The notes: generated by a model from the letters alone, not told the origin. A DNA stretch of 64,000 nucleotides from an uncultured Desulfospira sp. (GCA_963663165.1 OY760175.1:2304001-2368000), one strand, 5' to 3'. Shown: positions 15,862-34,759, counted from the stretch's first letter. Numbers and translations: made by a program.

Positions 15862-15863
15862 AG

Positions 15864-16418: not shown

Positions 16419-18082
16419 AGAACCTGAGCCTTGATGACCGTTTTTATTTGCTGCTCCATAAAAAAATCATGAATAAAACCGGATCAGCCAAAAGAAGGTC
16501 CAAAAAATATTACAAAGACCAGTACAGGAAAACCGGCATTATCCCGACGCCCCTTCTACTGGTTGAAAAAGGGATTATGGACGGCCGCAAATGCAGCGGC
16601 CGGCCCCGGTCCATAGATGAACAAACCAAAAGGCGGTTTATCGAAATGGTCAAGGCCTCCTGTGACCCGTCATCCCAGGGGTTTATTTTTATTACCCGAA
16701 AAGCCAGAACCATTAAAAATTACCACTATTGGCTTGAAAGAGAATTGGGAAAAACCATCAGCCTTCCGGCACTCAGGCGATGTGCCCAAAGGGAAGGCCT
16801 TAAATTTTACCTGGAAAAAGAAGATTTTGAAGAAAATGCCCCGGTGAAAAACGCATTCAAGCCTGTTCCGGTGTTTGGCCTGATACAGGTAGACGGTTGC
16901 AACTTTCGATATTTAAAAATCAAAAATGAGGCTGGCCACTGGCAAAAACCCCAAGTCATTGAAACGTTTGATACCGGTTCCCGGTACATGTTTGAACTTG
17001 ATGCCTATTTCGATGAAAGCAGCTTAAGCTCAGTGGATTTGTTTAACCGGTTTTTGCTTTCCACCCCATTTCCCCAGAAGAAAGTCCGGTTCAGGCCGGA
17101 TAACGCCACAGGATTTGTAAATCTCAAAAGAGTCATCAACGCCTTGAATATAAAACATTCCGTTCCCGGAGGATTTTATCTGGCGCCGGATTTTTCAAGG
17201 GTAAGTGCCCCCAGGGACAAGGCCCATCTTGAGTCCTCCCATCGCAGTCTTCATAATTTTGAAATCCGAATCATCAAGGCGTTTGAAGACAGGATTGTAA
17301 AGACCGTTCCAGGGGTTATCTTCAATAATAAGAAAAAAGAAAAAATCACTGTGACACTCCTTGATATTACACTCCGGGATTTAAGACACAGCCCCCTGAT
17401 AAAAGAATACCGCCACGAACATAACCACACCAAACATTATTTTAGCGAAAATGGAAAGATCAGTGCATGGGTTCCGGCACAAAAGCTGGAAGAATTTTTA
17501 TCAAGGCAAGCCGATATCCTTACCTTTTCACCGGATGAGGTGCAGGAATATATGAAGTATGGCTACAGGAAAATAAAAGCCACTGTATCTAACAAAAGAA
17601 CCATTCGCCATGACAACCGGATCTATTGTGTAACCAGTGGTACAGACCGGTTCAGCAGGCATAAAAGTACACCGGTGCAAATATCAGTATATAAGGGCAA
17701 GCTGTTTATTTTTGAACGGGGGGAAGACGGCATACTATTGGGCGAAGCCCTTGCCACAAAGCCGTTTGACAAACCACCTGACCCAAAATCTGTACCAGTG
17801 GCCCCGGATGAACTCGACATGATGATCATTTTTCTGGAAAAGCACAACATGGCCGTCGACCGGCGAGTCTTAATTGAAGCTTATCATAGCGGCCTCACTC
17901 TGGCCCGGGCTCAACAAGTGCTTCATCATAATCAATCCAGGTACAAGAATTATATGAAAAAGATGCGGCAACCTGAAACACAGAAAAAGCAGGCGGTATT
18001 CAATGCCTTTATGCTTGACTGCCGGAAATTGATCAATACAAACCATGTGGCCACGTATGCATCCTGCGGAGATTTAACATGA
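16415..18082 (+). CDS. DDE-type integrase/transposase (Mu/TnsB/IS481-like)
   Basis: N-terminal SGRPRS HTH; IQVDG, FDTGSRY, RPDNATGF, PRDKAHLES triad; ATGA overlap with the upstream gene. Confidence 0.82.
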   Translation: MKNLSLDDRFYLLLHKKIMNKTGSAKRRSKKYYKDQYRKTGIIPTPLLLVEKGIMDGRKCSGRPRSIDEQTKRRFIEMVKASCDPSSQGFIFITRKARTIKNYHYWLERELGKTISLPALRRCAQREGLKFYLEKEDFEENAPVKNAFKPVPVFGLIQVDGCNFRYLKIKNEAGHWQKPQVIETFDTGSRYMFELDAYFDESSLSSVDLFNRFLLSTPFPQKKVRFRPDNATGFVNLKRVINALNIKHSVPGGFYLAPDFSRVSAPRDKAHLESSHRSLHNFEIRIIKAFEDRIVKTVPGVIFNNKKKEKITVTLLDITLRDLRHSPLIKEYRHEHNHTKHYFSENGKISAWVPAQKLEEFLSRQADILTFSPDEVQEYMKYGYRKIKATVSNKRTIRHDNRIYCVTSGTDRFSRHKSTPVQISVYKGKLFIFERGEDGILLGEALATKPFDKPPDPKSVPVAPDELDMMIIFLEKHNMAVDRRVLIEAYHSGLTLARAQQVLHHNQSRYKNYMKKMRQPETQKKQAVFNAFMLDCRKLINTNHVATYASCGDLT

Positions 18083-18741
18083 AGGCAGATTTTATCAGTG
18101 ACAAACGAAGGGTATCATACCTGAGCGCCACTTATAGCCGGATCTACCGGGGCCGGAGCGTACTCATTGAGGGAGATTTTGGAGCGGGAAAAACCAGGTT
18201 TTTAAAACTGCTTCGTCCCAAAAAACTTCATGCCGTATGGGTAGAGTCCCTGTTCAACATACACGAAACCCTGGCATCCATACTCAAAGAATTGAACTAT
18301 GACACCACAGCCACATATCGCAGAACTCCCCAGTACCTGAAAATGATCTGCAACCTGTCCAACTGCTTTATTATTATTGATGAGGCCAATGATCTGGATA
18401 CCAGGGTCTGGCCATATCTTAAGCGGATCATTGATGCCGGTGTTCCTATTGTTTTTGCAGGGCTTCCAAAGGTCAGGACCTATTTGATTCGCAATCACCC
18501 TGATATCCTCAGCCGGTTGAAAACCCTGATTTTATATCCCATAGAGGTTGAGGGCTTTATCGAACAATATAAAGATATCCAGCAGGAAGCCGTTGAGCAA
18601 ATTTATATGGCGGTCAAAGGCGACATGCGTAAATTTAAAGAAATCTGTACTGACTGCCGGGACAAGGCAAAGGAATTGAACCACCAATTTGTTGACATTA
18701 ATCTTGCCCTGGAGTTTATATCTGACCTTCCTCCCCAGTAA
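18079..18741 (+). CDS. AAA+ ATPase, transposition helper-like (TniB/ExeA-like)
   Basis: Walker A GDFGAGKT, Walker B IIIDEA, ILSRL; ATGA overlap with the transposase. Confidence 0.85.
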   Translation: MKADFISDKRRVSYLSATYSRIYRGRSVLIEGDFGAGKTRFLKLLRPKKLHAVWVESLFNIHETLASILKELNYDTTATYRRTPQYLKMICNLSNCFIIIDEANDLDTRVWPYLKRIIDAGVPIVFAGLPKVRTYLIRNHPDILSRLKTLILYPIEVEGFIEQYKDIQQEAVEQIYMAVKGDMRKFKEICTDCRDKAKELNHQFVDINLALEFISDLPPQ

Positions 18742-18763
18742 TCCCTGAAAAGTAGATCCGTAA

Positions 18764-18803
18764 AAACAGGCCACTTCTGATTTAACCGGAAGATGGCCTG
18801 TTT
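18764..18803 (+). terminator. Hairpin after the ATPase gene
   Basis: AAACAGGCCA...TGGCCTGTTT followed by a T-rich tract. Confidence 0.6.
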
Positions 18804-19335
18804 ATATTTTGACCTTAATTGATTAACGCAATTTTTCGCCTGGATATACCTGTGAAAATCAGGGAACCACAGATTGTTTTTGAATCTTTTTTGAACCGTT
18901 ACATTAATTTGCAACTTTCAATATTTTTGACTGCCAACCTAACCTACTAAATTTATATGAAAAACCATTTCTTTTTTGAAATAATGAACGAAAAAAAATC
19001 CGTTACATTATTTGAATGTGAGCAAGCCTTTATGATAAGGCGATGGAGACTACAAACGCTAAGGCTCACCCTCGAATTGTGGGAGGCCGAAGGACTGAAA
19101 AAAGAATTGAACGGCGTTATTGACAAGGGTTCAGGTCCACAATGATACCATTATGTTGCGAGTGGGTCTAACCTGTTAAATTTAAAGGCGATTTTAGCTA
19201 TTCACATTGCAAATCAATATTGTATTAAAATTCAACACGTTAAAAGTTATTTTAGAAATTTTAAAGATCAGTGGCAACATAATTTTTTGTTTTACTACAT
19301 ACCCCTCCAAAGCTAGCAAAAGCTGCTTCAGTGGT

Positions 19336-20355
19336 TCATAAACTGTCAAGCCAGGCAAGGATTTCAGCACTATTTCCCCAGTCGATTAACTCATCAATTT
19401 TTTTGTCATGAGTTATTTTCGATTGCATGTATTCCATGAGCGTATTTTGGACTTCCCGTTTTTTTGACAGATCCAGCTGCAGATAGGTCATTGTTGATTC
19501 AATACTTTGATGACCAAGACGATTTTTGATATCCGATACCGGAGCACCTGAACTGACCATGTTGACCGCGCACGAATGCCTGAAGCAGTGAGCCGGGCTC
19601 AGTCCTTTCAGCCGTTTTTCCGGCAAGGCCAAGGTCAAATACTTCCTGCAAATTTTATTAATTCCATGTCTGGTCATTTCCCGCTTCCGTTGATTGATAA
19701 ACAGCCTATGGGCAAATAAAGGGATGGGATCTACCCTGTGATTGCTGATATAGTCCGAGATCAAGGAGGCGGTTCTGGAGCATAGATTAATCAACCGGTA
19801 TCGGTTTCCCTTTCCCAGGACCGCAATGGTTTCGTTTTCGGGGTCAAAATAATCAAATTCCAATGTGGCAATTTCACTGGCCCGGGCACCGGAGTCATAA
19901 AGCAGATGGAGAATGGTAAAATCCCTCATGCCTTCTTTCTTTTTCAGATCAACGGCACTGAAGACTTTCATGATTTCTTCAGGATATAAAAATCCCATCA
20001 CCTTTTTTTGAGCTCTTTTCTGAGGGATGTTCAGGAGCCTATCGGCAATTCGTTTTTTATCCGGATGCATGAAGCGGATCATCTTGGCCAAAGACTTAAT
20101 CACGGCCAGGCGTTGGTTTCGAGTCTGCACGCTATTTTTTCGGTTTTTTTCCAGATGCTGGAGAAAGGCAAGCACTGCATCCACCGTTAAGTGTTCGATT
20201 TTCAATGACTTGATTTTTATTGAGTGATGATTCGCCAGAAAATGCAGAAATAACGACAGGCTCTGCTGGTAAGCTTGAACACTTTGTTTGCTCGTCCCTT
20301 TTATCGAGGGCAAGTATTCATAAAAATACTGGTGCAGGCAACTTGTCAATCTCAT
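19336..20355 (-). CDS. RIT tyrosine recombinase C
   Basis: SGARASE, GKGNR, HCFRHS, LGH, TYL. Confidence 0.92.
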   Translation of the reverse strand: MRLTSCLHQYFYEYLPSIKGTSKQSVQAYQQSLSLFLHFLANHHSIKIKSLKIEHLTVDAVLAFLQHLEKNRKNSVQTRNQRLAVIKSLAKMIRFMHPDKKRIADRLLNIPQKRAQKKVMGFLYPEEIMKVFSAVDLKKKEGMRDFTILHLLYDSGARASEIATLEFDYFDPENETIAVLGKGNRYRLINLCSRTASLISDYISNHRVDPIPLFAHRLFINQRKREMTRHGINKICRKYLTLALPEKRLKGLSPAHCFRHSCAVNMVSSGAPVSDIKNRLGHQSIESTMTYLQLDLSKKREVQNTLMEYMQSKITHDKKIDELIDWGNSAEILAWLDSL

Positions 20356-21326
20356 GCACCCTCGCTTTTTGATTTCGAAAAATCAAACAGTTGCCAACGG
20401 TGCTCAGCATCCAGTACCTTCAAATAATAGGTTGTGTATTTGTATTTGCTGTGCCCCATATAAGCCGCCAGTACAGGCAGGGCATTTTGGCAGGATTTTC
20501 CTTGCTGTTTTATCCTTTTCAGCGTGTTCACAGCAAACGAATGCCGCAGGGAATGATGTGAAGGCTGGCTGAAGTTTGTAGTACCGATTATTTTCCGGGA
20601 GTGATCAAAATTAATATCTGTGAGAGCCTGTTTAAATCTGCGATTTATAAACATACGTACCAGTTTTTTCCCTTTCACCTTTACCAGCAAAAAAGGGCTG
20701 TCATCCTCATCAGGGAATAACCGGCGAACTTTTAGCAGGTTGTTGATTTCATAGGCTACGGCTTTGGGTATAGGGATCAATCGATCTTTTCTAAATTTTG
20801 TCTTTTCAATATAGATTGTTCTTTCTTCGGGCCTGTAATGGGTTTTCAATAAATTAAGTGTCTCCGAGGTTCTAAGTCCGCACCGGGCCATCAACAAAAA
20901 GGCTATATAAGCACTGAAATCTGACACATAGAATCTCTGGCTTGTCCGCATCGACTTGATTACAGCTTTGAGAAAACGGTCTGTTTCTTCCGGAGAAAAT
21001 ATAAAAGGAATAACGTGATTTTCCTGTAGCTCAGTGATTTCCTGCAACGGATTTTCCAGAATCACATCTTTGCGTATAAGATAATTGAAAAAGATCTTGA
21101 GCATTCTAAAAATCGTATTTATGGACCGGGGTTCAAGATCAAGTTCTGCTCTGAACCGGATAAAAAACAGCGGATCAAAGGATGTCCAAGTCACTTGTTT
21201 TTCAGACACATATCGATCAAGTACCCTAAGACCGTACATCATTGAGGTGTTTGAGTACCCCAGTTGAAAACGATATGTGATAAAATCCTCCATTTGTTCA
21301 GCCAAGAAACTTTTAAAACGTTTCAT
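20352..21326 (-). CDS. RIT tyrosine recombinase B
   Basis: CGLRTSE, TKFRKDRLIP, HSLRHSFAV, LAAYMGH, YYL. Confidence 0.92.
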   Translation of the reverse strand: MKRFKSFLAEQMEDFITYRFQLGYSNTSMMYGLRVLDRYVSEKQVTWTSFDPLFFIRFRAELDLEPRSINTIFRMLKIFFNYLIRKDVILENPLQEITELQENHVIPFIFSPEETDRFLKAVIKSMRTSQRFYVSDFSAYIAFLLMARCGLRTSETLNLLKTHYRPEERTIYIEKTKFRKDRLIPIPKAVAYEINNLLKVRRLFPDEDDSPFLLVKVKGKKLVRMFINRRFKQALTDINFDHSRKIIGTTNFSQPSHHSLRHSFAVNTLKRIKQQGKSCQNALPVLAAYMGHSKYKYTTYYLKVLDAEHRWQLFDFSKSKSEGA

Positions 21327-22200
21327 CAAGGATAACCTCCCGCATCAGGCCGATATGAATGCTCAGATACTTTTTTGTCGAATCGAGGCTTTTATGTCCC
21401 ATCATTTCTTTGATTTCATAGATGGACATACCGGACTCCAACATATTCTGGGCAAATGAATGCCGCAGCCAGTATGTGCTTGATCCAAGATTGTTTTTCG
21501 TCATGCATTCTTTTATATCTCGGGGGATATCGCTCCTGTTGGCCGGTTTATAAGGTGGTGTCAACTGTAAAAATAGAACTCGGGATTGAGTTTCAGGTCT
21601 CCCGCCCACAATATAGGCAGTGATCGCTTTGATTATGTTATCGGGAAGGGGAAGATGAGCAGGATTGCAATTTTTTCTTGAACGGATAAAAATCTCTTTC
21701 TGTCTAAATGAGATGTCATCCAGAGTTAGCAACCTGATTTCTTTCGGCCTTAACCCCAGATAACATGCCAGATGCAGGGTGGCATTGGTGCGAAGGTCTT
21801 TTGCTGTTGACAGGTCCAGACTGTCAAACAACTTTTGAATTTCATGAGTGCGCAAAAATTTGGGCGGCTTTGGTGGTCCGAACTCCGGAGGGCTTACCAC
21901 TAAAGCGCCAAGGTCCTTTTTAAGATCTCCGTGTTGATAAAGGTACTTTAAAAATCTTCGTACATGTGACCGGTGCGTCCTGCATGTCCCGGGAGCACGC
22001 CCCTTGTTGCAGACTGCTAAAAATTGATCGACCTGGTCAATGGATATGTTGCCCAAAGAGGTGTTTTCCCCCTGAAGATAGGCCGCAAAATTTGTTAATG
22101 TCCTTTTTGTATAGGACACCGCATCCCCGGAAGCTTGATCTCGACAGTAGTCCAGGTATTTCTCCACTGCTTTGGTGACCTTATTGTCAACTTCCATCAT
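21313..22200 (-). CDS. RIT tyrosine recombinase A
   Basis: LGLRPKE, RSRKN, YWLRHSFA, MMGH, KKYL; ATG 22200 with GGAGG RBS. Confidence 0.9.
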   Translation of the reverse strand: MMEVDNKVTKAVEKYLDYCRDQASGDAVSYTKRTLTNFAAYLQGENTSLGNISIDQVDQFLAVCNKGRAPGTCRTHRSHVRRFLKYLYQHGDLKKDLGALVVSPPEFGPPKPPKFLRTHEIQKLFDSLDLSTAKDLRTNATLHLACYLGLRPKEIRLLTLDDISFRQKEIFIRSRKNCNPAHLPLPDNIIKAITAYIVGGRPETQSRVLFLQLTPPYKPANRSDIPRDIKECMTKNNLGSSTYWLRHSFAQNMLESGMSIYEIKEMMGHKSLDSTKKYLSIHIGLMREVILDETF

Positions 22201-22672
22201 GGCTGCCTCCAAAAGATTGCAGGACAAGGCTGCGGATGGTTGCCGGATCGTGCAGTTCCATGTCTTTTTGGCTTTGAAGGGGGGCTGCTGAGGGCAGAGC
22301 CACTCTTTCCGGAAGGGACAATACTTGGAAAAGGTTGCCGTCAAATGCGACCAGGTTCTTGTCAATCAAGGCATTCCTGGCAAGGATGTAGTCATCAACA
22401 CAAATCCTGAGCAGGGTGCAGATTTTATCATAGCCGTAATAGGACAGCCCATGACGATCCGCCACGATAATCAAAAACAGGTACAGCAGGAGCTGATGAT
22501 GATCCAGGCTTGCCCAGAATCCGTCCCGCAGGAACCGGTGCTCGATAAAAGCAAAGCTTCCTGCAATTTTTCTGATGCGGCAGGGATCTATGGGATTTTT
22601 TGCAATGGACGCACGAAAACGGCGTTGGGGCTTTTGATTCCGATTTTTGGCTTTATTTTGTCCGGTCTCCAT
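22187..22672 (-). CDS. Winged-HTH hypothetical protein (Rep-like HTH), RIT1 cargo
   Basis: SFAFIEHRFLRDGF..LLYLFLIIVADRHGLSYYGYDKICTLL..ARNALI; AAGGAGG RBS. Confidence 0.7.
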   Translation of the reverse strand: METGQNKAKNRNQKPQRRFRASIAKNPIDPCRIRKIAGSFAFIEHRFLRDGFWASLDHHQLLLYLFLIIVADRHGLSYYGYDKICTLLRICVDDYILARNALIDKNLVAFDGNLFQVLSLPERVALPSAAPLQSQKDMELHDPATIRSLVLQSFGGSHDGS

Positions 22673-22719
22673 GGCATTGCCTCCTTGAAATGATCGTTAA
22701 AGGCAATTTACCCTTTTTC

Positions 22720-23328
22720 TCAGGGGGGATCAGGCCCCGTTTGTTGTTGGAACCGGCTTTTTCCATGATGTTTTTTTTGAGGGCGAGGGCCAAACCCTAA
22801 CGGCGGTGGCAGGATATCCAAATGTGAAGCGGCAAGTTCCCGGAGATGGGGTAAAACAAACTCAACCCCAAGTGCAGATCTCAATGATGATAAGGTTGCC
22901 TGACCATCATTGGATAAGGACGGAATCAGGTCGATTAATAAAATCAAACTTACATGAATCAAAAACAGTCTGTGCCTCATCCATCGCAAGACACCAGGCA
23001 GGCCGATATCTGGACGCATATTGTCTGCTGCGGCCTCCTGGCTTGGTGCTGCTTCGATCTGATTGATGACCGTTTCCGCCTCCATCAGTGTCCCTGGCAG
23101 ACGTGAGGACAGGCAATCGGGCAACAGCCCGAAGGTGGTCCTGCCATCCGGACAATACCACCGGGCGATTTTTGCACCGTCGGGATACTTTCTGCAATAG
23201 GTCCCATGCCTGGCAAATTTGCAGCCACCTTCCGGATGTAACGGGCACCGATCCAGTTTTGCATCTTTCCATGCCTCCTCCTCTATATATTGTTCAACAG
23301 GAATGTCGGTGGCGAATCGGAGCTGCAC
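22720..23328 (-). CDS. Zn-ribbon/HTH hypothetical protein of transposon-associated type (DUF6431-like), RIT1 cargo
   Basis: CPLH..CKFARHGTYCRK..IARWYCP..TTFGLLPDCL. Confidence 0.6.
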   Translation of the reverse strand: MQLRFATDIPVEQYIEEEAWKDAKLDRCPLHPEGGCKFARHGTYCRKYPDGAKIARWYCPDGRTTFGLLPDCLSSRLPGTLMEAETVINQIEAAPSQEAAADNMRPDIGLPGVLRWMRHRLFLIHVSLILLIDLIPSLSNDGQATLSSLRSALGVEFVLPHLRELAASHLDILPPPLGFGPRPQKKHHGKSRFQQQTGPDPP

Positions 23329-23357
23329 GACTTTAACCTTGCGTTAAAATTCAAAAT

Positions 23358-23783
23358 ATGAAACATTTTCCCATGGCAAAGATCGGTCGCAATACACCAT
23401 GCCCTTGCGGCAGCGGTAAGAAATATAAGAAGTGTTGTTTGTCGTTGCAGTCAGCGGGAACTCAACCCAAGCCCTATCCTGCCGGGTTTACACCAGTTTA
23501 CACGGAATTGGATCTGCTTTCAAACAGTGTGATTGATCTGATCGATGAAAACAAATTCGACGAGGCAGAAGCTGTATCAAAGAGATTATTGCATGAATAT
23601 CCAAATCAGATTGACGGCTTTCACAGGTTGGGACAGGTCTATGAAGCTCAGGGAAAAAAGCATGAAGCGGGAGAATACTATCAAAAAGCCGCAGATTTTG
23701 CCCGGACAATGCCGGGTTTTGATCCGGAAACTGTTGAACGCTTCCTTTTAAAAGCAAAGAAATATAGGGAAGAAGCAAAGTAG
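23358..23783 (+). CDS. SEC-C motif + TPR protein, RIT1 cargo
   Basis: [23 protein letters not shown]-like [21 protein letters not shown]. Confidence 0.85.
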
Positions 23784-24416
23784 AAAAACTATATCCAAAG
23801 AAAATAACTCATTTAGAACTTTTTATAGAAGAAAATCTCGCTACAAAAAAAGTCGCAACATAAATACCATTAAAGCCCACCTTGATATTCCTTGTTTGCA
23901 TCATGGATACCGCCCAATTATTTGAATGGATAGAGAATATAGGCTGATAAAAAACGGTTAACTTCTGGCAAATCAATTTTCAAAGTATTTTGCCCTGAAT
24001 AGTCTTTACACGACCCAACCAAGCTGATATGCAATCCACGTATATACTAATGATGATAACCGATCCGGTTATCCGTTAATTCCTCTTGATATGCTGATAG
24101 ATATCAGATTGCTCAAGATAATCGGACAACTACTTGTACACCTGAACCTCATGAGGCTGAACGCAGATACAGGTTATTTGAATTTGGAGGACTAATGGTC
24201 GCTGATCCAACAGGATGGATATCTGATTTTTACTGGCACCTATGGCTTTTTTTTTCTGAAAACAATGATCAATTTTTCTACGGATTTGCTGCTCCTTCGC
24301 ACCATCGCCCCCCTTTATCTCCACACAGGTCACTTGTTGGGTACGATTCAATTGTCGAGTATCATACAGGCTTAGACCCCAAAAAATTCGAATCCTTTCA
24401 GGAAGATCTATCCTGA

Positions 24417-25676
24417 TTATATCGGATTTTGGGGAGGGCTTCGGTACCCACCCAAAGAAGCCGAAATGTAAAGGTTATGCAACCAGTTGTCGTGATATCT
24501 AAATTGATTCAGCCTTTCAGCTGGGCTTTTGAATCCGTTATGCCTTTTGACGGTTTCCGGGTTGTAAGGAGCAAAATTATGAATGAGTGTCCATCCTCGA
24601 ATGCTCAGTTGCGCTGCATCCATTACTCCATGAAAATATTGAGTGCTGAACAGATGGCGATCCATTCTTTGCATCAATCTGTCAACCATGTTGCTCGTTC
24701 TGTGTGCCTTGGGATGATCATAGGCGTTTCTGTATGAAACAATATTTTTCCGTAATTTGTTTATGGGGTCTGATATAACATTCGGAGCATCTTGCTTTTT
24801 GCACCATTCGATCAACCTCCTGATTCGCTGTGAAAATGATATTTTGCTTTCAGCCCGATAACAATCCCATAGTTTTGATGCTGTTTCATCAAAAATGTCT
24901 CTGTATTTCTTCTTTGCCCTATCACGAATTTTTATGAATACATGCAAAAAACAACAAACGATGGCTACCGATGGAAAAAGGCTTTTCCATGCCTGCCGGG
25001 TAGCTTTCCATCCGTCTATATTGACGGTCTCCGGAGAATATTCAGGCCGAAGGCATTGGGCTTCATCCCGGTAAAATTGATAAGCTCCAGTCAAGGCTTG
25101 TTTTCCAGCATTTTGAGCAACAGACGCTCCAAGAATGCAGCCATTTCCAACAGTTGTTGCCACATAAGTTTTTTCTCCCAGAATCCGGGTATGCTTCTCA
25201 TCCGCCGCAAGATGTTGCGGGATGTCTTCCGGTTGTCGGATGGTTGTTCCAACGATACTATTGCGACCAAGTGACTGCTCAATCCGGTACCAATACATTG
25301 GATCCTTACCGAAAATGTGGCTCAGTGCCCAGAAGGGCACATTAAATTTTCGCATAAAAAGAGCTTTTTCAACCTCATCGACCAAGCCGGTGAGATAGGG
25401 TGTCACAAAGGAAGGGCGGACTGTGTAAGCAATGCCGGACATCTCGATTCGCCGAATAGGGATCAACATTTTTTTTGAGTGATAGATATCTTTCATTCGA
25501 TATCCTTCTCTGGAAATTTCAGCTGGAAATAGTTCCGGGAAAAGCTCAATCCTTTCATTGAGACAGTTCCGAAATTTGTCAGGATTTTGAATGTTGTCAT
25601 TATAATCATCTTGAGAAAAAGGCACACATATGGTTCTATGGTTTCGGATTGCGGATTCTGTATCTGTTTCCCACAT
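24417..25676 (-). CDS. Transposase
   Basis: AADEKH, NIDGWKA, CCFLH, RTSNMVDR; stop codon inside the IR. Confidence 0.85.
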   Translation of the reverse strand: MWETDTESAIRNHRTICVPFSQDDYNDNIQNPDKFRNCLNERIELFPELFPAEISREGYRMKDIYHSKKMLIPIRRIEMSGIAYTVRPSFVTPYLTGLVDEVEKALFMRKFNVPFWALSHIFGKDPMYWYRIEQSLGRNSIVGTTIRQPEDIPQHLAADEKHTRILGEKTYVATTVGNGCILGASVAQNAGKQALTGAYQFYRDEAQCLRPEYSPETVNIDGWKATRQAWKSLFPSVAIVCCFLHVFIKIRDRAKKKYRDIFDETASKLWDCYRAESKISFSQRIRRLIEWCKKQDAPNVISDPINKLRKNIVSYRNAYDHPKAHRTSNMVDRLMQRMDRHLFSTQYFHGVMDAAQLSIRGWTLIHNFAPYNPETVKRHNGFKSPAERLNQFRYHDNWLHNLYISASLGGYRSPPQNPI

Positions 25677-25711
25677 ATAGTTAGAGACCTCCTTGGCGGG
25701 TTTGGTCTCTA

Positions 25712-25740
25712 ACTATATGAAATTATTGACAAAAAGTCTA
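25712..25740 (-). promoter_or_regulatory. Putative sigma70 promoter of the transposase
   Basis: TAGACT-N17-TATAGT on the minus strand; the -10 lies inside a 16-bp IR (25674-89/25704-19) covering the ATG. Confidence 0.6.
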
Positions 25741-27217
25741 GTCGGAATTCCCTTTGATTTCAATGGGTTACGAAAAAGTTTTTTACCCCCTTCCAATGAT
25801 TAGAGCGGTTTTGGCCTCTGTTCCCCTAAATCCGTTATAATCAGGATCTATCAAATGGACATTTAAGAACTAATTTGTTGGGACAGGGCGGCCCCACCCT
25901 TAACGTAAAAATCCAATTTATACAAAGGAGCTTCCAAAATACCCTTGGGTGTACCGCAGTTCCTGTGACCACATACTATTCCATGTCGCTAGCGGAATAT
26001 AATGTTTCGCGGGAAGGAATCAAACGTATGCTGGGCCATCTTGTTACCGAGAAAACTTTTGATGAGCCAGAACGGTATATGCACCGACTGGGGGCCTTTG
26101 ATATTATTAACTTACCGAAGCACGCCGAAGATGAGCAATACATCCTTAATTTTCGTCTACCAAAGCGACGGGATGTTTCCATGACGCCCCACCATAGAAA
26201 TTCCTATGAGATTTGGCGCAGGGATGATTTTGCACAAAACCGGCACTGGGCACATGTTTGTCTTTACAGCGGAGAAACTCCGGTGAGTGACGCTCTTCAT
26301 ATTCTTGACCCAGAAGTGAGGGTGTTTGGACCTGTCGCTATAGATGAAACATTTGATAGAACTGAATTTCGACTTTTTGATGAAAAGGGACTCTTACACC
26401 ATGAGGAGTCCGTATGGATTAATCAGTTTGCTATGAATTTTTCCATAGGGCAAGGAACTATTAGGTATGACAGCCCATTGACAGATCGTGGCAAAGGAGG
26501 AGGTGCTGTTGATACTGTCGAATCTTTGACCAATATAAGTGTTCGCTCTCGGGGTCGTGAAAGTATAACGAATGTAACAACCGGACAAGAATTCCGTGAT
26601 TATTGCCGAGAAATGCGTGAACGAGGTAAAACGTTATTCAAATCGCCTTCACCGGATAGATGGTTTCCCAAAGGAATAACAGGATCGTTGAATACATTGG
26701 AACATGTCAAAACATTGATTGAGGGTCAAGGTGTCATAAAAGTGTGGATTGTTGATCCTTTTTTCGATGCGAGGGCTGTGGAAAATCTTATTCCAACTAT
26801 TGGGGTCAGCAACCTTGAATTAGTTGTTATTACAAACCTAAGAAATATTGATGCATGCCGAGAGATTGGCGAAGGGGAAAACGAAACCGATCCTGTGAGT
26901 AACTTGGAAAAGAAACTTGATGTTCTTCGACCAATTATCCACTGTAACCTGAAAGTTAAAAACCTTCACACTACCCCGGGTTCAAATGAACAGGTTTTTC
27001 ATGACCGATATTTGTGTCTTAAAATGGGAAAAGACAAAGTTTCAGTTTATCTGCTCTCAAACAGCTTTAACGCTTATGCAGAGAATTATCCCTTCTGTCT
27101 AAGTCAATTGAGCGGCTTTGCGGCTAAAAATGCCTATGATTATATTATTAATCTTGAAGGTTTGAAAAATCCAGTCACTGGTTCGAATCTGTACTGTGAT
27201 CCTGACTGGAGTAAATA

Positions 27218-29269
27218 ATGTGTAAATCCATTCCACAAGAACAATTTCCCTGGATGGCATGGTTGTTACGCAAATTGTCTTCAAAAGAGGAACCGGCTGA
27301 TGATCAGCTTTTCAACAACGCTGCAAATCAAGGATGGTTGACTTGGCAAGAGCATGGTTTCTGGCGTGTTTGTGGAGCATGGGCGAAGGGTCTTCCAACT
27401 AATAAAGCCATAGTCGAGCATATTTTGACTGTCGACGATGCTGCCCACTTCGCCATGGCCATGGGAGAACTATCATCTGGTGTAAACGGCTTCCCGCTGG
27501 ATGCATGCAGCAAGGCGTTGAATGAAAGCCCTGGATTTCAAAAAAGTGATGCGGTTTTTCAACGGATTGGTGAGCTGGCTAAAAAAAATTACCCTTCTGT
27601 TGAATGTAATTTGGATACGCTTAAAGTTGCGCAATTTATAAATTCGTGCCAGTTAGATTATGATTCTTTTCAGATGGTTTCTTCTTTCACTGATTACCCC
27701 AGGTTCCTCAAGCCATTGAGGAGATACGGTTTATCTTACGGCATGTATATAGCATACATGTTAAATTTCAAAGCTTTTGGACTGTGGCTATCTCGGCAGA
27801 GCGACCCGGCTCTGATCGTCCCAACTCTCAGCCAATTTTCTATACTTTTCTACTTAGCTGATCAAAAAACCGTTGTTGGGCTCCTTAATTCCAGGCATCC
27901 GTTCCTTCAACTAAATGGGATCATGGCCCTGCATGCTTATCGAGATAAAGGGACCACATGTGACTGGCACTACCCATTGGAACAGGCCTTTGCAATAGTC
28001 GATAAGACTGAGCTATCTATAGAGGACTTCGCCTGGACTACATTTAGTCGTTTTAATGAGTTTGAAGGGCTTTGTGGACGTGCAAAAGGGGTTTTTGAGT
28101 ATCAAGTAAAGCAAGGCCCTGAACTTTCAGAAAAAGCAAAAGAGTCCAAAGAAAGGTATGAAAAAATTGTTGCTAGTATGGAGGATGAACTGTCAGTTTT
28201 TACCAATCACTTCCCCAAAAATGGGATAAACGAGAAACAGGCCTCTTATGTTTTGGGGGTTACTCGTGGGCGGCTTGGACTTCCTCTGCGGGTGGCAGAA
28301 AAGCTCCCAGAAAAAACAAAGAAGACGCTTGTTAAAGCGATTTTCAAAAGATTTCACTCCCAGACAGGTATTTTCAAATTAGCGAGTGAAACAGAACACT
28401 ATTCGTTGCCCTATCGTTGGAAGCAGCGTGTGAACTATTCTGCGCGAGCTTTTGTGCAGTATCATGCAGGCAAGAATATAGGCAGAAAATTTGGTTCTCT
28501 CGCCAAACCAGTGGAAGATGCACTTGTGCCGAATATGCTTGAACCATACTTATACTATCGGCGACATCATAAATGGATGCATGTTTTTGGCAGATTAGGT
28601 TTACTTTATTTTTATACAATAGAAATCGCAAAGACGTCTGATTTGGAAACAGAGAAAGGGGGTAGCTTTTTAATTCAGCATATGGTTAAGCAAACCCTAA
28701 TTTTATTTTTGCATTATTCAGGAGAGTATTTCACATCATTATACGATGTGTTAAGTCTTCGAGTAGCGAATCTGTTCGAGGGGAAGGTTAAGAAAGACAC
28801 GTTAGAAGAGTTGAAGGCTTTTGTAGACCATCCTCGAGGGTATTCGATTACAAAATTGCTTTTGGTTTGGACTCTCCCAGAATTATTTGAAGGTTATAAA
28901 AATAAGGTGATGCATCTGTTTAGAATTTTTGATCTACTCCCACCTGACGAAGACGGTATACTTGAAAGATTTTCAGCCTATGCAAATATTATGGATCGTG
29001 CCCTTGTGGCTGCGCACAGGATGAAGGATTTATCTTTAAGCAACGAATTGGTGGCTGACTGGGAAAAGAGGTTCTCAGTCTGGAAACCGGTTGTAGGCTC
29101 TAAATGGTTGCTCGCGCCACATTGGCAACAAAAAGCCTTGAGCGGAGATAATGAGGGGTATACGTGGCTTTGTGGATTGCCTGAGCTTAGTAACTGCTTG
29201 TGTCGAAGGTACTGTGACGAGATGTACATAAAACATAGAGGGGCAAACAAAGATAATACGAAAATATAA
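27218..29269 (+). CDS. Hypothetical 683-aa protein, translationally coupled to the VPA1262-like gene
   Basis: Long ORF, TAATG overlap with the upstream stop; no motif recognised. Confidence 0.75.
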   Translation: MCKSIPQEQFPWMAWLLRKLSSKEEPADDQLFNNAANQGWLTWQEHGFWRVCGAWAKGLPTNKAIVEHILTVDDAAHFAMAMGELSSGVNGFPLDACSKALNESPGFQKSDAVFQRIGELAKKNYPSVECNLDTLKVAQFINSCQLDYDSFQMVSSFTDYPRFLKPLRRYGLSYGMYIAYMLNFKAFGLWLSRQSDPALIVPTLSQFSILFYLADQKTVVGLLNSRHPFLQLNGIMALHAYRDKGTTCDWHYPLEQAFAIVDKTELSIEDFAWTTFSRFNEFEGLCGRAKGVFEYQVKQGPELSEKAKESKERYEKIVASMEDELSVFTNHFPKNGINEKQASYVLGVTRGRLGLPLRVAEKLPEKTKKTLVKAIFKRFHSQTGIFKLASETEHYSLPYRWKQRVNYSARAFVQYHAGKNIGRKFGSLAKPVEDALVPNMLEPYLYYRRHHKWMHVFGRLGLLYFYTIEIAKTSDLETEKGGSFLIQHMVKQTLILFLHYSGEYFTSLYDVLSLRVANLFEGKVKKDTLEELKAFVDHPRGYSITKLLLVWTLPELFEGYKNKVMHLFRIFDLLPPDEDGILERFSAYANIMDRALVAAHRMKDLSLSNELVADWEKRFSVWKPVVGSKWLLAPHWQQKALSGDNEGYTWLCGLPELSNCLCRRYCDEMYIKHRGANKDNTKI

Positions 29270-29478
29270 GTATATTATCAAAAGCTGACAACGAAGGTGT
29301 TATCAAGGCTTTTTAATTATGAAATTAAACCGTTAAATGATTTGACTCAACAATGAACATGCTGGGGATAAAGCCGCATATGTTCAGGTTAAAAATCGAA
29401 AATGAGTCAAAACCTTTGAGGAATAGCAAAGTGAGCATTTTGTCTATTTATGTAGCGAGTTTTTTTTGTTGCGTGTTC

Positions 29479-29544
29479 TACCCCGCCCGACCCAGCTGGA
29501 CCCCGCTATACCCCGCCATATTTTGAAAAAATACTACCCCGCCA
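29479..29544. repeat. Iteron-like (T/G)ACCCCGC repeats, 10-bp period
   Basis: Copies at 29479, 29489, 29499, 29509, 29535. Confidence 0.75.
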
Positions 29545-29583
29545 CCATCCATCCGATCATAGATCTAAGGAGGTATCAGGTCT

Positions 29584-30123
29584 ATGAAAAAACAAATCCG
29601 ACAGCGCAGGTGTAAAAACTGCCAAAATTTATTCAAGCCAGATCCCCGTCATTTGAAACGGCAAAAATTTTGTAACGAACCCGAATGCAAAATTGCCAGT
29701 AAAAAACACAGCCAGCAAAAATGGCTGAATAAGCCAAAGAATCAGGATTATTTTTCAGGGCCTGAGAATGTGGTCCGTGTTCAGGAATGGCGCCAAAGCA
29801 ATCCTGGTTACTGGAAGCGAACAAAGCCTCCGGGAAAGCCATCCTTAACTGAAAATACGTTACAAGAGATAAAAACTGCCAAAACCATTGCTGGTAAAGG
29901 ATCTTCGATGGATTTAATTCAAATACCGTTACAAGATTTAATATCGGCCAAGACCCTTGTCTTTATTGGGTTTGACACCCTCCTTAACAAAAATGCGTTA
30001 CAAGAGATTATTGATGCCACGGACCAGGAGACGGTAAAATTGACACCAGATATTATGAAGGAACTAACCAAAAAGAAGAGGTGTCAGCATGGGCAAACGA
30101 TTTTCTTCAAAGGAACTTTATAG
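29584..30123 (+). CDS. Cys-rich basic hypothetical protein, RIT2 cargo
   Basis: CKNC..RQKFCNEPEC..SQQKWL; AAGGAGG RBS. Confidence 0.7.
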   Translation: MKKQIRQRRCKNCQNLFKPDPRHLKRQKFCNEPECKIASKKHSQQKWLNKPKNQDYFSGPENVVRVQEWRQSNPGYWKRTKPPGKPSLTENTLQEIKTAKTIAGKGSSMDLIQIPLQDLISAKTLVFIGFDTLLNKNALQEIIDATDQETVKLTPDIMKELTKKKRCQHGQTIFFKGTL

Positions 30124-30397
30124 ATTACGAAATTCAATACCCATTCATGTGTTGATCGAAACGGAACTGGGTATTCCAGCCAAAATAAGTGAAGGGGTTT
30201 TCCGTTTTCTGTGTCCCTTGTGCAATGAATTTCAGACTGCAGTTAATCCTAAGACGAACCTGAGCAGGTGTTTTCGATGCGAAAAGAATTTTAATACCAT
30301 AGATCTGGTAATGGCCTGTCGGCACATTGGTTTTGTTGACAGTGTCAAATATCTTCAGATTATTTTGAATACAAGAGCACCTGATCATGACGTCTGA
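30089..30397 (+). CDS. CHC2-type zinc-finger protein, RIT2 cargo
   Basis: FLCPLCNEFQTAVNPKTNLSRCFRCEKNFNTIDLVM; near-identical core to 15472..15861. Confidence 0.85.
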   Translation: MGKRFSSKELYRLRNSIPIHVLIETELGIPAKISEGVFRFLCPLCNEFQTAVNPKTNLSRCFRCEKNFNTIDLVMACRHIGFVDSVKYLQIILNTRAPDHDV

Positions 30398-31346
30398 TTT
30401 GGGAACAGAACTCAATATACAGTCTTATCGTCGATGTCGAGTGCCGGCAGAAATAATGCCGCCACTCGGCCTTCCGTTGCCGGAAATTTTTCATGGGTAT
30501 CTGAATTATTACAAACACCAGCTTCGTAACGAAAACAATATCGGCGCAATGAGGCAAATACTGATGAGTTTTCATTTTTTTCTTCAAACGTCAGGCATTC
30601 TTTTAAATGAAATATCCATTCATCAGGTTGATCAATTTTTAGCCCGTTACAACACCAATTATTCTGCCGGGGCAGCCAGATCTAACCGGTCACATCTTCG
30701 GCAGTTTCTCAAGCACCTCTACCGAGGCGGGTATATCAAAAAAGACATCTCTGTGCTGGTGGTGAGCCCTCCTGAGTTTGCTCGGTCAAAACCACCGAAA
30801 TTCTTGCGCCCCCATGAAGTGCAAAAAATGTTTAAGCTCATGAATTTGTCAACAGCAAAAGATCTCCGTATTTATGCGGCTATGCACCTGGCATATTTTT
30901 TGGGATTGAGGCCCGGAGAAATCAGCTCACTTACCCTGGATGACATCTCTTTCAGGCAAAAAGAGATTTTTATTCGTTCGAGAAAAAATTACAGCCCTGC
31001 TCATCTTCCTGTGCCGGACAATGTGATCAAGGCCATCACCGCTTATATTATCGGCGGGAGACCAGAAACCCAATCTCGAACCTTATTTTTACAGTTAGTG
31101 CCGCCTTATAAACCGGTTGGCAGGAGCGACATCCCCCGTCATATAAGAGAATTTATGGCTGATAGCAATCTTGAGTCAAACACATATTGGCTGAGGCATT
31201 CTTACGCCCAGAATTTGCTGGAGTCCGGTGCTTCCATTTATGAGATAAAAGAAATGATGGGCCATAAAAGCATCGGAGCAACGCAAAAATATCTGAGCAT
31301 CCATATCAACCTGATGCGGGAGGTTATCCTCGGTGAAACGCTTTAA
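30387..31346 (+). CDS. RIT tyrosine recombinase A
   Basis: LGLRPGE, YWLRHSYA, MMGH, QKYL. Confidence 0.9.
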   Translation: MTSDLGTELNIQSYRRCRVPAEIMPPLGLPLPEIFHGYLNYYKHQLRNENNIGAMRQILMSFHFFLQTSGILLNEISIHQVDQFLARYNTNYSAGAARSNRSHLRQFLKHLYRGGYIKKDISVLVVSPPEFARSKPPKFLRPHEVQKMFKLMNLSTAKDLRIYAAMHLAYFLGLRPGEISSLTLDDISFRQKEIFIRSRKNYSPAHLPVPDNVIKAITAYIIGGRPETQSRTLFLQLVPPYKPVGRSDIPRHIREFMADSNLESNTYWLRHSYAQNLLESGASIYEIKEMMGHKSIGATQKYLSIHINLMREVILGETL

Positions 31347-32307
31347 AAGCTTTCTTAGCGAATATATAGAGGATTTTATCGAATACCGTCTTCAATTGGG
31401 ATATTCAGATAAAATGCTGCTGTGCAGCCTTCGGTTGCTGGATCGGTATGTTGCCCAAAGGGATGTGACCTGGACATCATTTGATCCGTTGTTTTTCATC
31501 CGACTCCGTTCAGACCTCAATTGTGAAAACCGTTCCATCAATACATTTTTTCGAACGTTTCAAATGTTTTTCAAATATCTGATCCGCAGAGACCTGATTT
31601 TGACAAATCCCATACAGGAGATTGCTGAGCTGCCGGAAAATCAGATTATCCCTTTTATTTTTTCTCCGAAAGAAACGGATCTTTTATTGAAAACTGTCAT
31701 AAAACAGATGCGAAAAACAAAAAAATATTACCTCACCGATTTTAGCGGTTATATCTCTTTTCTGCTGATGGCCCGGTGCGGCTTGAGAATATCGGAGACG
31801 TTCAATTTGCTGCAAAAGAACTACAGGTCTGAAGAAAGGACAATCTATATTGAGAAAACAAAATTTAAAAAAGACCGACTGATCCCAATACCCAAGGCCG
31901 TTTCTTGTGAAATCGACAATTTTTTGAACGTGCGACGGCTTTTACTTATTGCCGATGTGCATCCTTTATTATTGATCAAAGGAGATGGCGGAAAGTTACC
32001 CCGCCATTTCATGGATCGAAAATTTAAAAAAGCGATTTCGGCCATTAACCTTGATCAGCACAAAAAAATTATTGGTGCTACAAATTTCAGCAACCCGACA
32101 CGGCACTCACTTCGTCATTCCTTTGCTGTAAATACACTGAAACGAATTAAACAACAGGGCAAGTCTGCCCAAAATGCGTTGCCGGTGCTGGCCGCTTACA
32201 TGGGACACAGCGAATACAAGTATACGACCAAATATCTGAGAGTTCTGGATGCAGAGCATCGCCGCCAAATGCTTGATTTTTCGATGTTGAGAAGTGAGGA
32301 TGTATGA
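31333..32307 (+). CDS. RIT tyrosine recombinase B
   Basis: CGLRISE, TKFKKDRL, HSLRHSFAV, YMGH, KYL. Confidence 0.92.
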   Translation: MKRFKSFLSEYIEDFIEYRLQLGYSDKMLLCSLRLLDRYVAQRDVTWTSFDPLFFIRLRSDLNCENRSINTFFRTFQMFFKYLIRRDLILTNPIQEIAELPENQIIPFIFSPKETDLLLKTVIKQMRKTKKYYLTDFSGYISFLLMARCGLRISETFNLLQKNYRSEERTIYIEKTKFKKDRLIPIPKAVSCEIDNFLNVRRLLLIADVHPLLLIKGDGGKLPRHFMDRKFKKAISAINLDQHKKIIGATNFSNPTRHSLRHSFAVNTLKRIKQQGKSAQNALPVLAAYMGHSEYKYTTKYLRVLDAEHRRQMLDFSMLRSEDV

Positions 32308-33323
32308 GATTATCCACCTGCCTGCATCAGTATTTTTATGAATACCTGCCCCATATAAAAGGGACCAGCGAACAAAGCATTAAAACTTACCAGCAGGCTT
32401 TTTCTTTGTTTCTGCATTTTTTGGCGGATTATCATTCGATCAAAATCAAATCCTTGAAAATTGACCATTTAACACCTGACGCTGTTCTGGGCTTCCTGAA
32501 TCATTTGGAAACAGACCGAAAAAATACCGTCCAGACCCGGAACAACCGCTTGGCCGTGATCAAGTCGCTGGCCAAGATGATCCGATTCATGCATCCGGAC
32601 AAAAAACGAGTCGCAGAAGCTCTTTTGACCATCCCTCAGAAAAGGGCTCAAAAGAAGGTGATGGGATTTTTACACCCAGAAGAAATAATGAAAATTTTCA
32701 GTGTCGTCGATTTAAAAAAGAAGGAAGGGATGAGAGATTTTACCATTCTCCATCTGCTTTACGACTCCGGTGCCAGAGCCAGCGAGATTGCCACACTGGA
32801 ATTTGATTATTTTGATCCTGAAAACGAAACCATTGCGGTCCTGGGCAAGGGGAACCGATACAGGTTGATCAACCTGTGGTCCAAAACCGCATCACTGATC
32901 TCAGACTATATCACCAATCATAGAGTAGCCCCCATCCCATTATTTGCACACCGGCTGTTCATTAATCAGCGGAGGCGGGGAATGACCCGGCATGGTATCA
33001 ACAAAATTTGCCGAAGATATCTGACAAAAGCATTGCCGGAAAAACGGTTGAAAGGTCTGAGTCCGGCCCATTGCTTCAGACATTCTTGTGCGGTTAATAT
33101 GGTGACTTCAGGGGCCCCCGTATCGGATATCAAAAATCGCCTGGGCCATCAAAGCGTTGAATCAACAATGGCTTATTTGCAGCTGGACTTGTCAAAAAAA
33201 CGGGAAATCCAGGATAAGCTCATTGAATATATGCAATCGAAAATAAATCAAGACAAGAAGATTGATGAGCTGATCGACTGGAAAAATAATGCTGAAATCC
33301 TTGCCTGGCTTGACAGTTTATGA
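32304..33323 (+). CDS. RIT tyrosine recombinase C
   Basis: SGARASE, GKGNR, HCFRHS, LGH, AYL. Confidence 0.92.
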   Translation: MRLSTCLHQYFYEYLPHIKGTSEQSIKTYQQAFSLFLHFLADYHSIKIKSLKIDHLTPDAVLGFLNHLETDRKNTVQTRNNRLAVIKSLAKMIRFMHPDKKRVAEALLTIPQKRAQKKVMGFLHPEEIMKIFSVVDLKKKEGMRDFTILHLLYDSGARASEIATLEFDYFDPENETIAVLGKGNRYRLINLWSKTASLISDYITNHRVAPIPLFAHRLFINQRRRGMTRHGINKICRRYLTKALPEKRLKGLSPAHCFRHSCAVNMVTSGAPVSDIKNRLGHQSVESTMAYLQLDLSKKREIQDKLIEYMQSKINQDKKIDELIDWKNNAEILAWLDSL

Positions 33324-33716
33324 TCCATTGAGGTAGCCTTTTGCTATCTTTAAAGCGGTATGTAGTAAAACAAAAAATTATGTTGCCAGTGATTATGAAA
33401 AATTTTATAATCCACTGTAACTCATTGAATTTAAAAGTCGATATTGATTTGCACAGCGGGTGTTTGAATTTATCATAAAAATCAATGAGTTATGACCACT
33501 CGCAACATAAGTCTATTTATGTTGTGTGCAACCTTTGCCAGTAAAGGCGTTGACTTCTTATGTCATTGAGTGCTCGGATCGGAAATTCGGAAGATCAAAT
33601 TAAGCTTTTGAGGTGAAGACTACCTACGTAACATTGTCCGCTTTTCAGGTGAACGAACCCACCAGACTATCCTGTAATTCAGGCTCGTTCCAATATCAAA
33701 AATGATGTCGCCGATA

Positions 33717-34759
33717 TTATTTTTTGCCTTTTATTTTCTTTGAGGTTTCTATTTGTTTTACCGCCTTATCGAAGTCGCTCAGTTCATTTTTTGAAGAGAT
33801 CAAACGCCGGGCATGAAATTTTTCATACTCATTTTCAGCCGTCTGCTTTGCCGATTCATGGGAAATTTTTCCCGCATGGTTCAAAATGTCCCGATCATTG
33901 ATCGAAAGAAAACCATCCAGCTTTTTAATCCAGTCTTCCATATACATGGGAATACGGCGCATGGCCTGGCCTTGTGCAAAAATAAGGTATTGTTCAACCA
34001 AATTATTTAAGGCCGCTAATTCGTCTTCATTGAGGTAATTTTTTGCAATGACAACGTCCTGCTTGCGGACCTTTGTCCCCCGGTAATTGGTCAGCCCCAT
34101 ATTGGGTTTATCAGCATCAACCCGGGAATGAATAATCTCAGCGGCTGTTTGGCCGGTTATGGCCCAGTGCATCTTGTTTTGGACTGTCTTAAAAAATGAA
34201 ATACTGATATCCATGGTGGGATCATAATCTATGCTGTGGCATAAATATCGGTAATTTTCTGATAGAACCGACGCTCGGACGTCCGTATATCCTGAATCCG
34301 CCGTTCCAGTTCCTCAAAGTAATCAAAGGGAAGGTCTGGATTTTTCAAACGGTCATCGTCCAGAGTAAACCCTTTGATAATATATTCCTTGAGCCGTTCC
34401 GTTGCCCAGATACGAAAACGGGTGGCCACACGGCTTTTTACCCGGTAACCAACGGATATGATCATATCCAGATTATAGTAATCCAGCAGGCGCTTTACGT
34501 CTCGGTTCCCTTCCCTGCGAACCGTCAAATATTTTTTGACAGTTGCCTCCGGCGCCAACTCACTTTCTTCATAAATTGAATTAATATGATGGCTTATATT
34601 CTGCTTTGAACTTTGAAACAGATCTGCCATCAACTGCTGGGTTAACCATACAGATTCATCCTCAATCCGGACATCTAACTTAAGCCGGCCATCTTCGTCC
34701 TGATAGACCAAAAACTGTCCTTTGGATGGTGTGTTTTCTTGCGGTGTGTCCCCGGCCAT
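33717..34759 (-). pseudogene. rhuM: Virulence RhuM-family protein, frameshifted near 34235
   Basis: VWLTQ.LMA.LF, YNLDMIISVGYRVKS, IRTSERRFYQKITDIYAT / FFKTVQNKMHWAITGQTAAE; adding one base restores ATSIDYDPT. Confidence 0.85.

Follow-up and report, generated by a model that had tools for sequence, protein, structure and literature searches.

RIT elements have been described as gene trios with terminal inverted repeats that occur in multiple identical copies (Van Houdt et al. 2009/2012; Ricker et al. 2013), and the same features are found in two elements, T1 and T2, of an uncultured Desulfospira sp. These elements, and the sites in which they reside, lie in a stretch of 64,000 nucleotides (nt), hereafter the window. 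The Rit proteins have been grouped among the simple Xer-related recombinases and Rit subgroups have been defined; RitA has two core-binding domains and RitC an extra C-terminal helix (PMC8138268, in excerpt). Palindromic end repeats of 47-51 bp have been reported, with the mechanism yet to be deduced (PMC5737581, in excerpt). RIT trios are also documented in Cupriavidus, where Tn6049-like elements carry RIT insertions (PMC3414803, in excerpt). This is paralleled by one T2 copy of the present organism (genome 4929282-4933344), which lies within a Tn6049-like transposon. Target specificity, the empty site and movement of RIT elements are listed as “not tested” in Table 1 of PMC10214605. In the literature searched, which did not cover Ricker et al. 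2013, no description of RIT targets or of a core hexamer was found. Compared with the described RITs, the elements of this locus have short, 11-bp arms that would form a dif-like 11-6-11 site and a hexamer that is two-sided and typical of the lineage, and both their empty sites and their target family could be defined. Coordinates are those of the window unless marked “genome”, which denotes the single 6.74 Mb contig of the same organism.

A second system for comparison is that of the pdif modules of Acinetobacter plasmids, in which short Xer-type sites (arm, 6 bp, arm) are situated between accessory modules. A pdif-type site is 28 bp long, with a spacer of 6 bp that separates two arms of 11 bp to which the Xer proteins bind. 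The sites of this locus resemble them in the arm-6 bp-arm layout, in the opposite orientation of neighbouring sites and in that half-sites stay with their modules. The differences are that the present locus is on a chromosome of the Desulfobacteraceae and not on a plasmid, and that a module whose two ends are defined was never seen in a second context. Furthermore, the sites here have long conserved extensions (a left tail of ~45 nt and a right module of ~170 nt) and the RIT’s own recombinases are at hand.

The tyrosine-recombinase transposons described in the available excerpts of PMC10214605 are alike in having a 6-bp junction core and target-site specificity. According to the same excerpts, these transposons carry the 6 bp of the old left flank to the new right junction without duplication, and the two junction hexamers usually differ. 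The RIT hexamers, in contrast, are equal in most copies and constant within a lineage. A likeness also exists to the IMEX elements and dif-XerCD, as the joined RIT ends resemble a dif-type site with an inner CATAA-N6-TTATGTT. Unlike those systems, RITs encode three recombinases of their own, and their targets are many and dispersed instead of the single terminus dif.

The RITs of this organism probably insert through conservative site-specific recombination, in which the joined ends of an element react with a pre-existing junction site that carries the hexamer of the lineage. T1 and T2 are members of a single, very active family, which is characterised by a trio of overlapping Xer-like tyrosine recombinase genes flanked by 11-bp inverted arms. 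An element would leave its site as a circle, with the ends joined via a 6-bp core to give an 11-6-11 dif/Xer-type site to whose arms the recombinases would be assigned. The target would hold the same hexamer, identity of the two presumably being needed, together with a left arm like the right-end arm of the RIT and a weaker right arm. Following integration, the hexamer on both sides would represent the shared crossover region and so mimic a target duplication. As the hexamer differs by lineage, each lineage would be restricted to its own subset of targets; T1 would have taken a site with TGGTAT and T2 a neighbouring, paralogous one with GTCTAT. A member of this site family comprises a left tail, the hexamer, and a right arm with a module of ~170 nt.

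The genome carries 16 RITs in three lineages (four copies of T1, four of T2 and eight of T3), with a protein identity of ~100% within each lineage. Copies of the same lineage are identical as far as the 11-bp arms and unrelated outside the hexamer, which fixes the element boundaries. The arms are inverted repeats that are perfect in T1 and have one mismatch in T2. The recombinase genes overlap by 17 and 4 nt in T1 and by 14 and 4 nt in T2, and their products score highest against the XerC/XerD/XerA models of NCBIfam, at values well below the cut-offs of those models. The same hexamer is present on both sides in 13 of the 16 copies (T1, 3/4; T2, 4/4; T3, 6/8), and it is TGGTAT for T1, GTCTAT for T2 and CTCCAA for T3. 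A scan with RitC located 68 loci in other genomes, mostly of Desulfobacter, Desulfobacula and other Desulfobacteraceae bins. A motif script located both ends in 26 of these, one of which was left out as it coincided with a copy of the present genome; equal hexamers were scored in 19 of the remaining 25, further types such as GAGCTC, TAGCAG and TAGCCG being included. Joined RIT ends would read arm-hexamer-inverted arm (11-6-11), and the inner CATAA-N6-TTATGTT has the letters of the quoted Escherichia coli dif motif. These data point to the 6-bp repeat being a lineage-specific crossover core, not a random target duplication.

Intact versions of the occupied sites exist. The empty site rebuilt from the T2 copy at genome 4929282-4933344 is found again at six other loci, with all 154 nt identical, and three further loci match it at 96.8%. 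All of these uninterrupted copies carry a single GTCTAT, and they are copies of the multi-copy, primase-carrying, Tn6049-like transposon. For the T2 of the window (site 2), contigs of runs X7, X9 and X10 (organism B, from one other study) join position 29441 directly to 33511. This joint skips 4069 bp, equal to T2 plus one hexamer, and over 25817-29441 there are no differences from the window. Contigs of run X5 (organism A) do not have the joint. Organism B retains T1 at its own site (site 1), two contigs bridging 23863/23864. As the joint occurs in a near-identical strain, site 2 was once intact and T2 arrived or left very recently. Uninterrupted relatives of the sites are also present with TGGTAT near genome positions 4446859 and 4974859 and with GTCTAT near 6400448, and two more with GTCTAT were found in G321, a genome of the same genus. 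The proposal of the initial annotation that the sites predate the RITs is borne out by these relatives and by the natural empty site 2 of the sister strain.

The same data bear on the idea that the similar flanks are part of the RITs themselves, as longer terminal repeats. T1 and T2 are only 73-80% identical overall, about as much as the flanks, and one detected inverted repeat (I4) crosses the assumed boundary. Nevertheless, within either lineage all four copies have the same sequence as far as the arms and unrelated sequences past the hexamer, the empty sites are exact, and the same flanks are found without any RIT. This explanation is refuted, with next to no probability left to it.

The targets share a consensus. 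Beside RITs of the TGGTAT and GTCTAT types, the flanks hold 17.3 bits of information on the left (22 distinct flanks) and 12.3 bits on the right (25 distinct flanks). Random genomic TGGTAT/GTCTAT positions gave 4.0 ± 0.6 and 5.3 ± 0.6 bits, respectively, and none of 200 control sets reached the observed values. Most of the signal resides in the 14 nt to the left of the hexamer, which resemble the right-end arm of the RIT. To the right of the hexamer is a noncoding module of ~170-190 nt with three direct GRCTAY motifs and a CCCTGT end; its nhmmer profile identifies about 15 credible copies in the genome. The module adjoins three of the eight T1/T2 insertions, and a fourth has the left tail AGGAATAG. 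Another is located in the primase transposon, and two have a common, different right flank (26/43 alike). By inspection, the proximal module motif is present in 7 of 17 right flanks from other genomes. With a consensus shared across this and other genomes, the preference of the RIT family for such sites, as claimed initially, stands.

There are several observations that weigh against the proposed insertion route. The hexamers are unequal in 3 of the 16 copies. The T1 copy at genome 2716663-2721376 (locus L012) has TGGCAT at its left end and TACTAT at its right end; both resemble one half of the usual TGGTAT fused to other sequence, which may be a trace of integration into a non-identical core. 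No homologous locus that could serve as its empty site was found in G321 or in G307, another genome of the genus. One T3 copy has GTAGGG/CTCCAA and another CTCCAA/CTTCAA. In other genomes 6 of the 25 loci were scored unequal, clearly so for L024 and L035; for L019 and L036 the script probably placed the left end wrongly, L062 is truncated by the start of its contig, and the hexamers of L037, scored unequal by the script, agree on inspection. It follows from the unequal copies that strict hexamer identity is not absolute. Nor does the hexamer type simply follow RitC similarity, as RitC proteins 86-90% identical to that of T2 go with TGGTAT and those 75-83% identical with GTCTAT or CTCCAA. Given this decoupling, the core would have to switch often. 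Four of the eight T1/T2 targets have neither the module nor the AGGAATAG tail; in one of the four, the left arm resembles that of a family member without an insertion. Profiles recognise the extended module beside only 2-3 of the 68 RIT loci in other genomes. Lastly, no circular junction or excision product was detected in the run data, which consisted of contigs in which rare forms are invisible. All four runs compared were contigs, and a missing circle, inversion or 19144/23870 excision joint is accordingly uninformative.

RITs are widespread elements. The sixteen fresh copies of the three lineages, the exact empty sites and the absence of one copy from the sister strain make site-specific insertion at hexamer-cored junctions a concrete and testable model for them. 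It forecasts which sites are still open to each lineage, and it would explain the pile-up of RITs at the borders of defence and toxin-antitoxin genes.

The two sites of the window are alike to a degree that chance does not provide. When emptied and read in element orientation, they align without gaps at 17/23 positions on the left and 27/43 on the right, with the coordinates and letters initially given. In a control of 200,000 random pairs of genomic 72-mers, no pair attained 44/66 (mean 16.5, standard deviation 3.7, maximum 35). The eight T1/T2 insertion sites of the genome can be paired in 28 ways, and of these pairs that of sites 1 and 2 is the most similar. The homology of the left half of site 1 to the uninterrupted site near genome 4974859 extends to 24130 (76% over 256 nt).

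It could be argued that this similarity is the remnant of a duplicated protein-coding gene end. It had been claimed that no reading frame is shared across the two sites, which is not the case: a short forward frame spans both and ends in a common TAA, and the reverse frames of several members yield similar peptide-like strings. Against a coding origin, every frame stops within ~40 codons, with stops at conserved positions, and more than one frame is equally “conserved”, as would be the case for conservation at the DNA level. The forward frame is not kept in other family members, and it disappears at genome 4446859, where this right half is joined to a different left half. By eye, differences are not concentrated at third positions. 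A decayed protein-coding paralog was rejected following examination of all six frames, and this origin is very improbable. An accessory palindrome said to covary between the sites (GAAC..GTTC versus CAAC..GTTG) did not hold up either: its halves are complementary in both window sites and fail in relatives, where two other distinct ungapped members are complementary at 2/4 and 3/4 positions.

The likeness to dif that had been noted holds for the geometry of two arms around 6 bp, but the target left arm resembles the E. coli dif less than the joined ends of the RIT do. The right arm of site 2 agrees with the quoted E. coli XerD arm at 8/11 positions and with the RIT’s own left-end arm at 9/11; the left arms fit only with an offset of 1 nt. 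A genome search for the host dif with the E. coli motif, allowing up to six mismatches, gave 43 weak matches, none convincing or near the skew maximum (~0.75 Mb).

The exact point at which site halves reassort is the hexamer. Site 2 is followed on its right by a 1.5-kb RhuM segment that has a 99.6% identical duplicate at genome 4446856-4445204. The duplicate begins inside the hexamer, has TGGTAT in front of it and stops exactly after the CCCTGT of the second of the short units described below. The right half of site 2 has three left partners, namely that of the window, that at genome 4446859 and a loose end in X7/X9/X10. Of the left tail AGGAATAG there are four copies in this genome, and G321 has two that are uninterrupted and carry GTCTAT; the tail is joined to three different right halves. 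Shedu, BREX, TacAT and a VPA1262-like pair are found to the left of such sites. The sites form a repeated noncoding family at the junctions of accessory genes (toxin-antitoxin, RhuM, BREX, Shedu and the VPA1262-like pair).

The RhuM gene at site 2 (33717-34759) is split into open reading frames (ORFs) of 176 and 165 amino acids, and that of the duplicate (genome 4445610-4446653) is intact with 347 amino acids.

Sites 1 and 2 are mutually inverted and bracket positions 23864-29447, a segment that carries an insertion sequence and a nuclease-like two-gene cargo, the VPA1262-like pair (Table 1). The 447-residue protein exceeds the threshold of the N-terminal-domain model NCBIfam NF040700 (156.7 bits, cut-off 80) and falls short of that of the full-length model NF040699 (140 bits, cut-off 325). 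The 683-residue protein has no match in Pfam, NCBIfam or PADLOC, and no PADLOC match was obtained for the pair. The initial annotation took the two sites as the limits of a mobile module that carries this operon. The inverted pair is real, but the mobility is not borne out: the hexamers of the two sites differ and the operon has no second copy in the genome. Overall, what remains of the initial proposal is a landing preference of RITs, while movement of the flanked genes as a cassette is not supported.

In its broader form, that proposal would make the hexamer-cored sites working recombination sites that delimit mobile modules in a pdif-like manner, with the RITs as parasites or drivers and with RIT trios acting in trans, a small XerA-like integrase or the host Xer as the mover; the VPA1262-like pair, the RhuM segment and the toxin-antitoxin pairs would be examples of the cassettes transferred or swapped among sites. 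Several patterns would fit, including the precise reassortment of half-sites at the hexamer, the presence of RIT hexamers in unoccupied sites (TGGTAT in two and GTCTAT in one here; GTCTAT in two of G321) and the RhuM duplicate, bounded by a hexamer and by the CCCTGT of a unit. Arrays of ~70-nt units in the same orientation between small, cassette-like gene sets, seen here and in 14 of 61 genomes of the family, can be added to these, as can the alternation of site orientation along the window: + (13307), - (19150) and + (33511). However, strand exchange normally needs identical hexamers, which sites 1 and 2 do not have, and inverted sites would flip a segment, not free it. The operon is single-copy, and relatives of it turned up neither in 300 genomes of the order nor in the metagenome scan; for the 683-residue gene itself, all 300 other genomes of the order were negative, as was every metagenome contig. 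No contig has an inversion or excision of 23870-29441, which is weak evidence as it comes from contigs. No close inverted pair was found elsewhere in this genome or at the two G321 loci; within the locus, one other such pair consists of the adjacent sites around the small recombinase gene. The same module bounded by sites in different contexts was not found, the only reassortment seen being that of one-sided halves, and in other genomes units also separate ordinary metabolic genes. On balance, pdif-like module movement is unlikely. Were the junction sites nevertheless to recombine themselves, this would be a new route of defence-island assembly. The inverted pair is taken here to consist of adjacent junctions within a 28-kb island that grew by accretion, and would not mark the limits of a moving unit.

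The sites could also be decayed solo ends of older RIT-like or RIT-dependent non-autonomous elements, where an old end with its hexamer would offer a ready-made half of a RIT recombination site and hence a landing place. The 9/11 agreement between the right arm of site 2 and the RIT left-end arm is in keeping with this, as is the resemblance of the consensus target left arm to the RIT right-end arm. The bracketed segment is itself element-like, having inverted ends of ~23 bp with a hexamer outside each, and hexamer-bounded segments occur in more than one context. On the other side, the modules and tails beyond the ~11-bp arms are, by eye, not noticeably like RIT interiors, the ends of the bracketed segment match the RIT arms poorly (about 2-4/11), and the cassettes are without a recombinase remnant, the separate small integrase excepted. 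This origin is considered improbable beside site-specific insertion into pre-existing junction sites.

The last part of the module recurs alone as a unit of ~70 nt, with 21 matches in the genome. The units carry two direct GGACTAY motifs and the CCCTGT end, and form short arrays in the same orientation at a spacing of 0.5-1.4 kb. By eye they contain a small, variable hairpin with a T-rich loop; no consensus RNA structure was predicted for 11 modules or 44 units, and Rfam gave no match for the whole window or for both site regions. RhuM, ParDE, PIN pairs, RelE and similar genes are situated between the units. The pattern is present in 14 of the 61 genomes of the family, spread over 8 of 19 genera, and a reversed control gave 0. 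This arrangement is reminiscent of integron cassettes, in which short sites in same-orientation arrays alternate with small, often toxin-antitoxin, cassettes. An attC site has paired inverted core sites that fold into a hairpin and is found next to intI/attI. In contrast to attC, the units carry direct GGACTAY repeats with no consensus hairpin, and the integron integrase of the genome (genome 4194663-4195604; TIGR02249, 456 bits against a cut-off of 265) is 1.8 Mb from the window. It is conceivable, if rather doubtful, that the hexamer sites and the units are recombination sites of an undescribed cassette-accretion platform in the Desulfobacteraceae, on which toxin-antitoxin and defence cassettes would be linked up at junction sites by RIT trios in trans or by the small XerA-like integrase. 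If this were true, RITs would be an engine comparable to integrons and pdif, and not mere selfish insertions.

Table 1. Elements, sites and neighbouring features of the locus, in window coordinates.
Feature	Position	Strand	Details
RIT T1	19151-23863	minus	4713 bp; boundaries fixed by comparison of copies
T1 genes	ritA 21313-22365; ritB 20352-21329; ritC 19336-20355		Pfam PF00589 in all three
T1 hexamer TGGTAT, right-end copy	19145-19150	minus	ATACCA on the plus strand
T1 hexamer TGGTAT, left-end copy	23864-23869	minus	
RIT T2	29448-33510	plus	4063 bp
T2 genes	ritA 30387-31346; ritB 31333-32307; ritC 32304-33323		PF00589 in all three
T2 hexamer GTCTAT, left-end copy	29442-29447	plus	
T2 hexamer GTCTAT, right-end copy	33511-33516	plus	
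Site 1 right half, adjoining the T1 right end	19102-19144	minus	family profile match 19153-18991, E 1e-23
Site 1 left half	23870-23892	minus	
Site 2 left half (AGGAATAG tail and left arm)	29419-29441	plus	
Site 2 right half and ~170-nt noncoding module	33517-33690	plus	ends ...CCTGT; three direct GRCTAY motifs
Third copy of site and module, degenerate	13307-13450	plus	3 nt in place of the hexamer; nhmmer E 2.7e-15 genome-wide
Unit 1, end of the module	33606-33679	plus	nhmmer unit profile, E 1.2e-8
Unit 2, between the frameshifted RhuM gene and the ParD/ParE pair	34967-35041	plus	
Unit 3, between the ParD/ParE pair and the Gp49/HI1420-antidote pair	35686-35757	plus	
IS256-like insertion sequence in the bracketed segment	about 24405-25852	minus	419-residue transposase; 31-bp inverted repeats; 4 genome copies
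Two-gene cargo	25875-29269	plus	447-residue protein with VPA1262 N-terminal domain; 683-residue protein
Small Xer/XerA-like tyrosine recombinase, 228-residue ORF	13993-14679	plus	PF00589, 2.1e-18; NF040815, 94 bits (cut-off 220)
4.28-kb transposon-like element	14747-19027	plus	6 genome copies; five others 99.98-100% (blastn)

The island of 28 kb (9177-37170) is absent beside the conserved flanks in G307. In that genome the two flanks have opposite orientations and are separated by 38 kb, and neither the island nor a site or unit was found between or at them. The island comprises a GmrSD/NsnA-like gene, an AbiC/AbiP-like gene, the small integrase, the VPA1262-like pair, RhuM, ParDE and a HigBA-like pair.

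The small recombinase gene sits between the site at 13307 and site 1, and looks frameshifted because the N-terminal part is upstream in another frame. It has six mostly fragmentary paralogs in the genome, several of which have units, sites or a RIT no more than a few kb away; positions include genome 6400873-6401711, 6012059-6012466, 2623680-2626845 and 2776575-2776937. No constant arrangement that would link this family to the module was apparent at the paralog loci. Between this gene and site 1 lies the 4.28-kb transposon-like element, which is not part of the site. Its ORFs encode a CHC2 zinc-finger (primase-like) protein, a 582-residue protein without a family and an AAA_22 protein, and it is flanked by a probable 3-bp CTT duplication.

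Both RITs of the window hold ORFs in addition to the recombinase trio. Those specific to T1 (22720-23783) comprise an ORF of 202 amino acids and a 141-residue SEC-C/TPR protein. The one specific to T2 (29584-30123) encodes a protein of 179 amino acids with three 23-residue repeats (69-nt repeats at the DNA level). Profile searches gave no family match for the 202- and 179-residue products.

The T3 lineage (e.g., genome 2833228-2837345) has targets of another kind. Six of its eight copies are located at the tip of a palindromic, REP-like repeat of ~95 nt with ~200 copies in the genome, an example of which lies to the right of 2837346. The T3 copy at genome 5588389 is within a repeat that has ~19 relatives clustered in a few regions, which are possibly attC sites.

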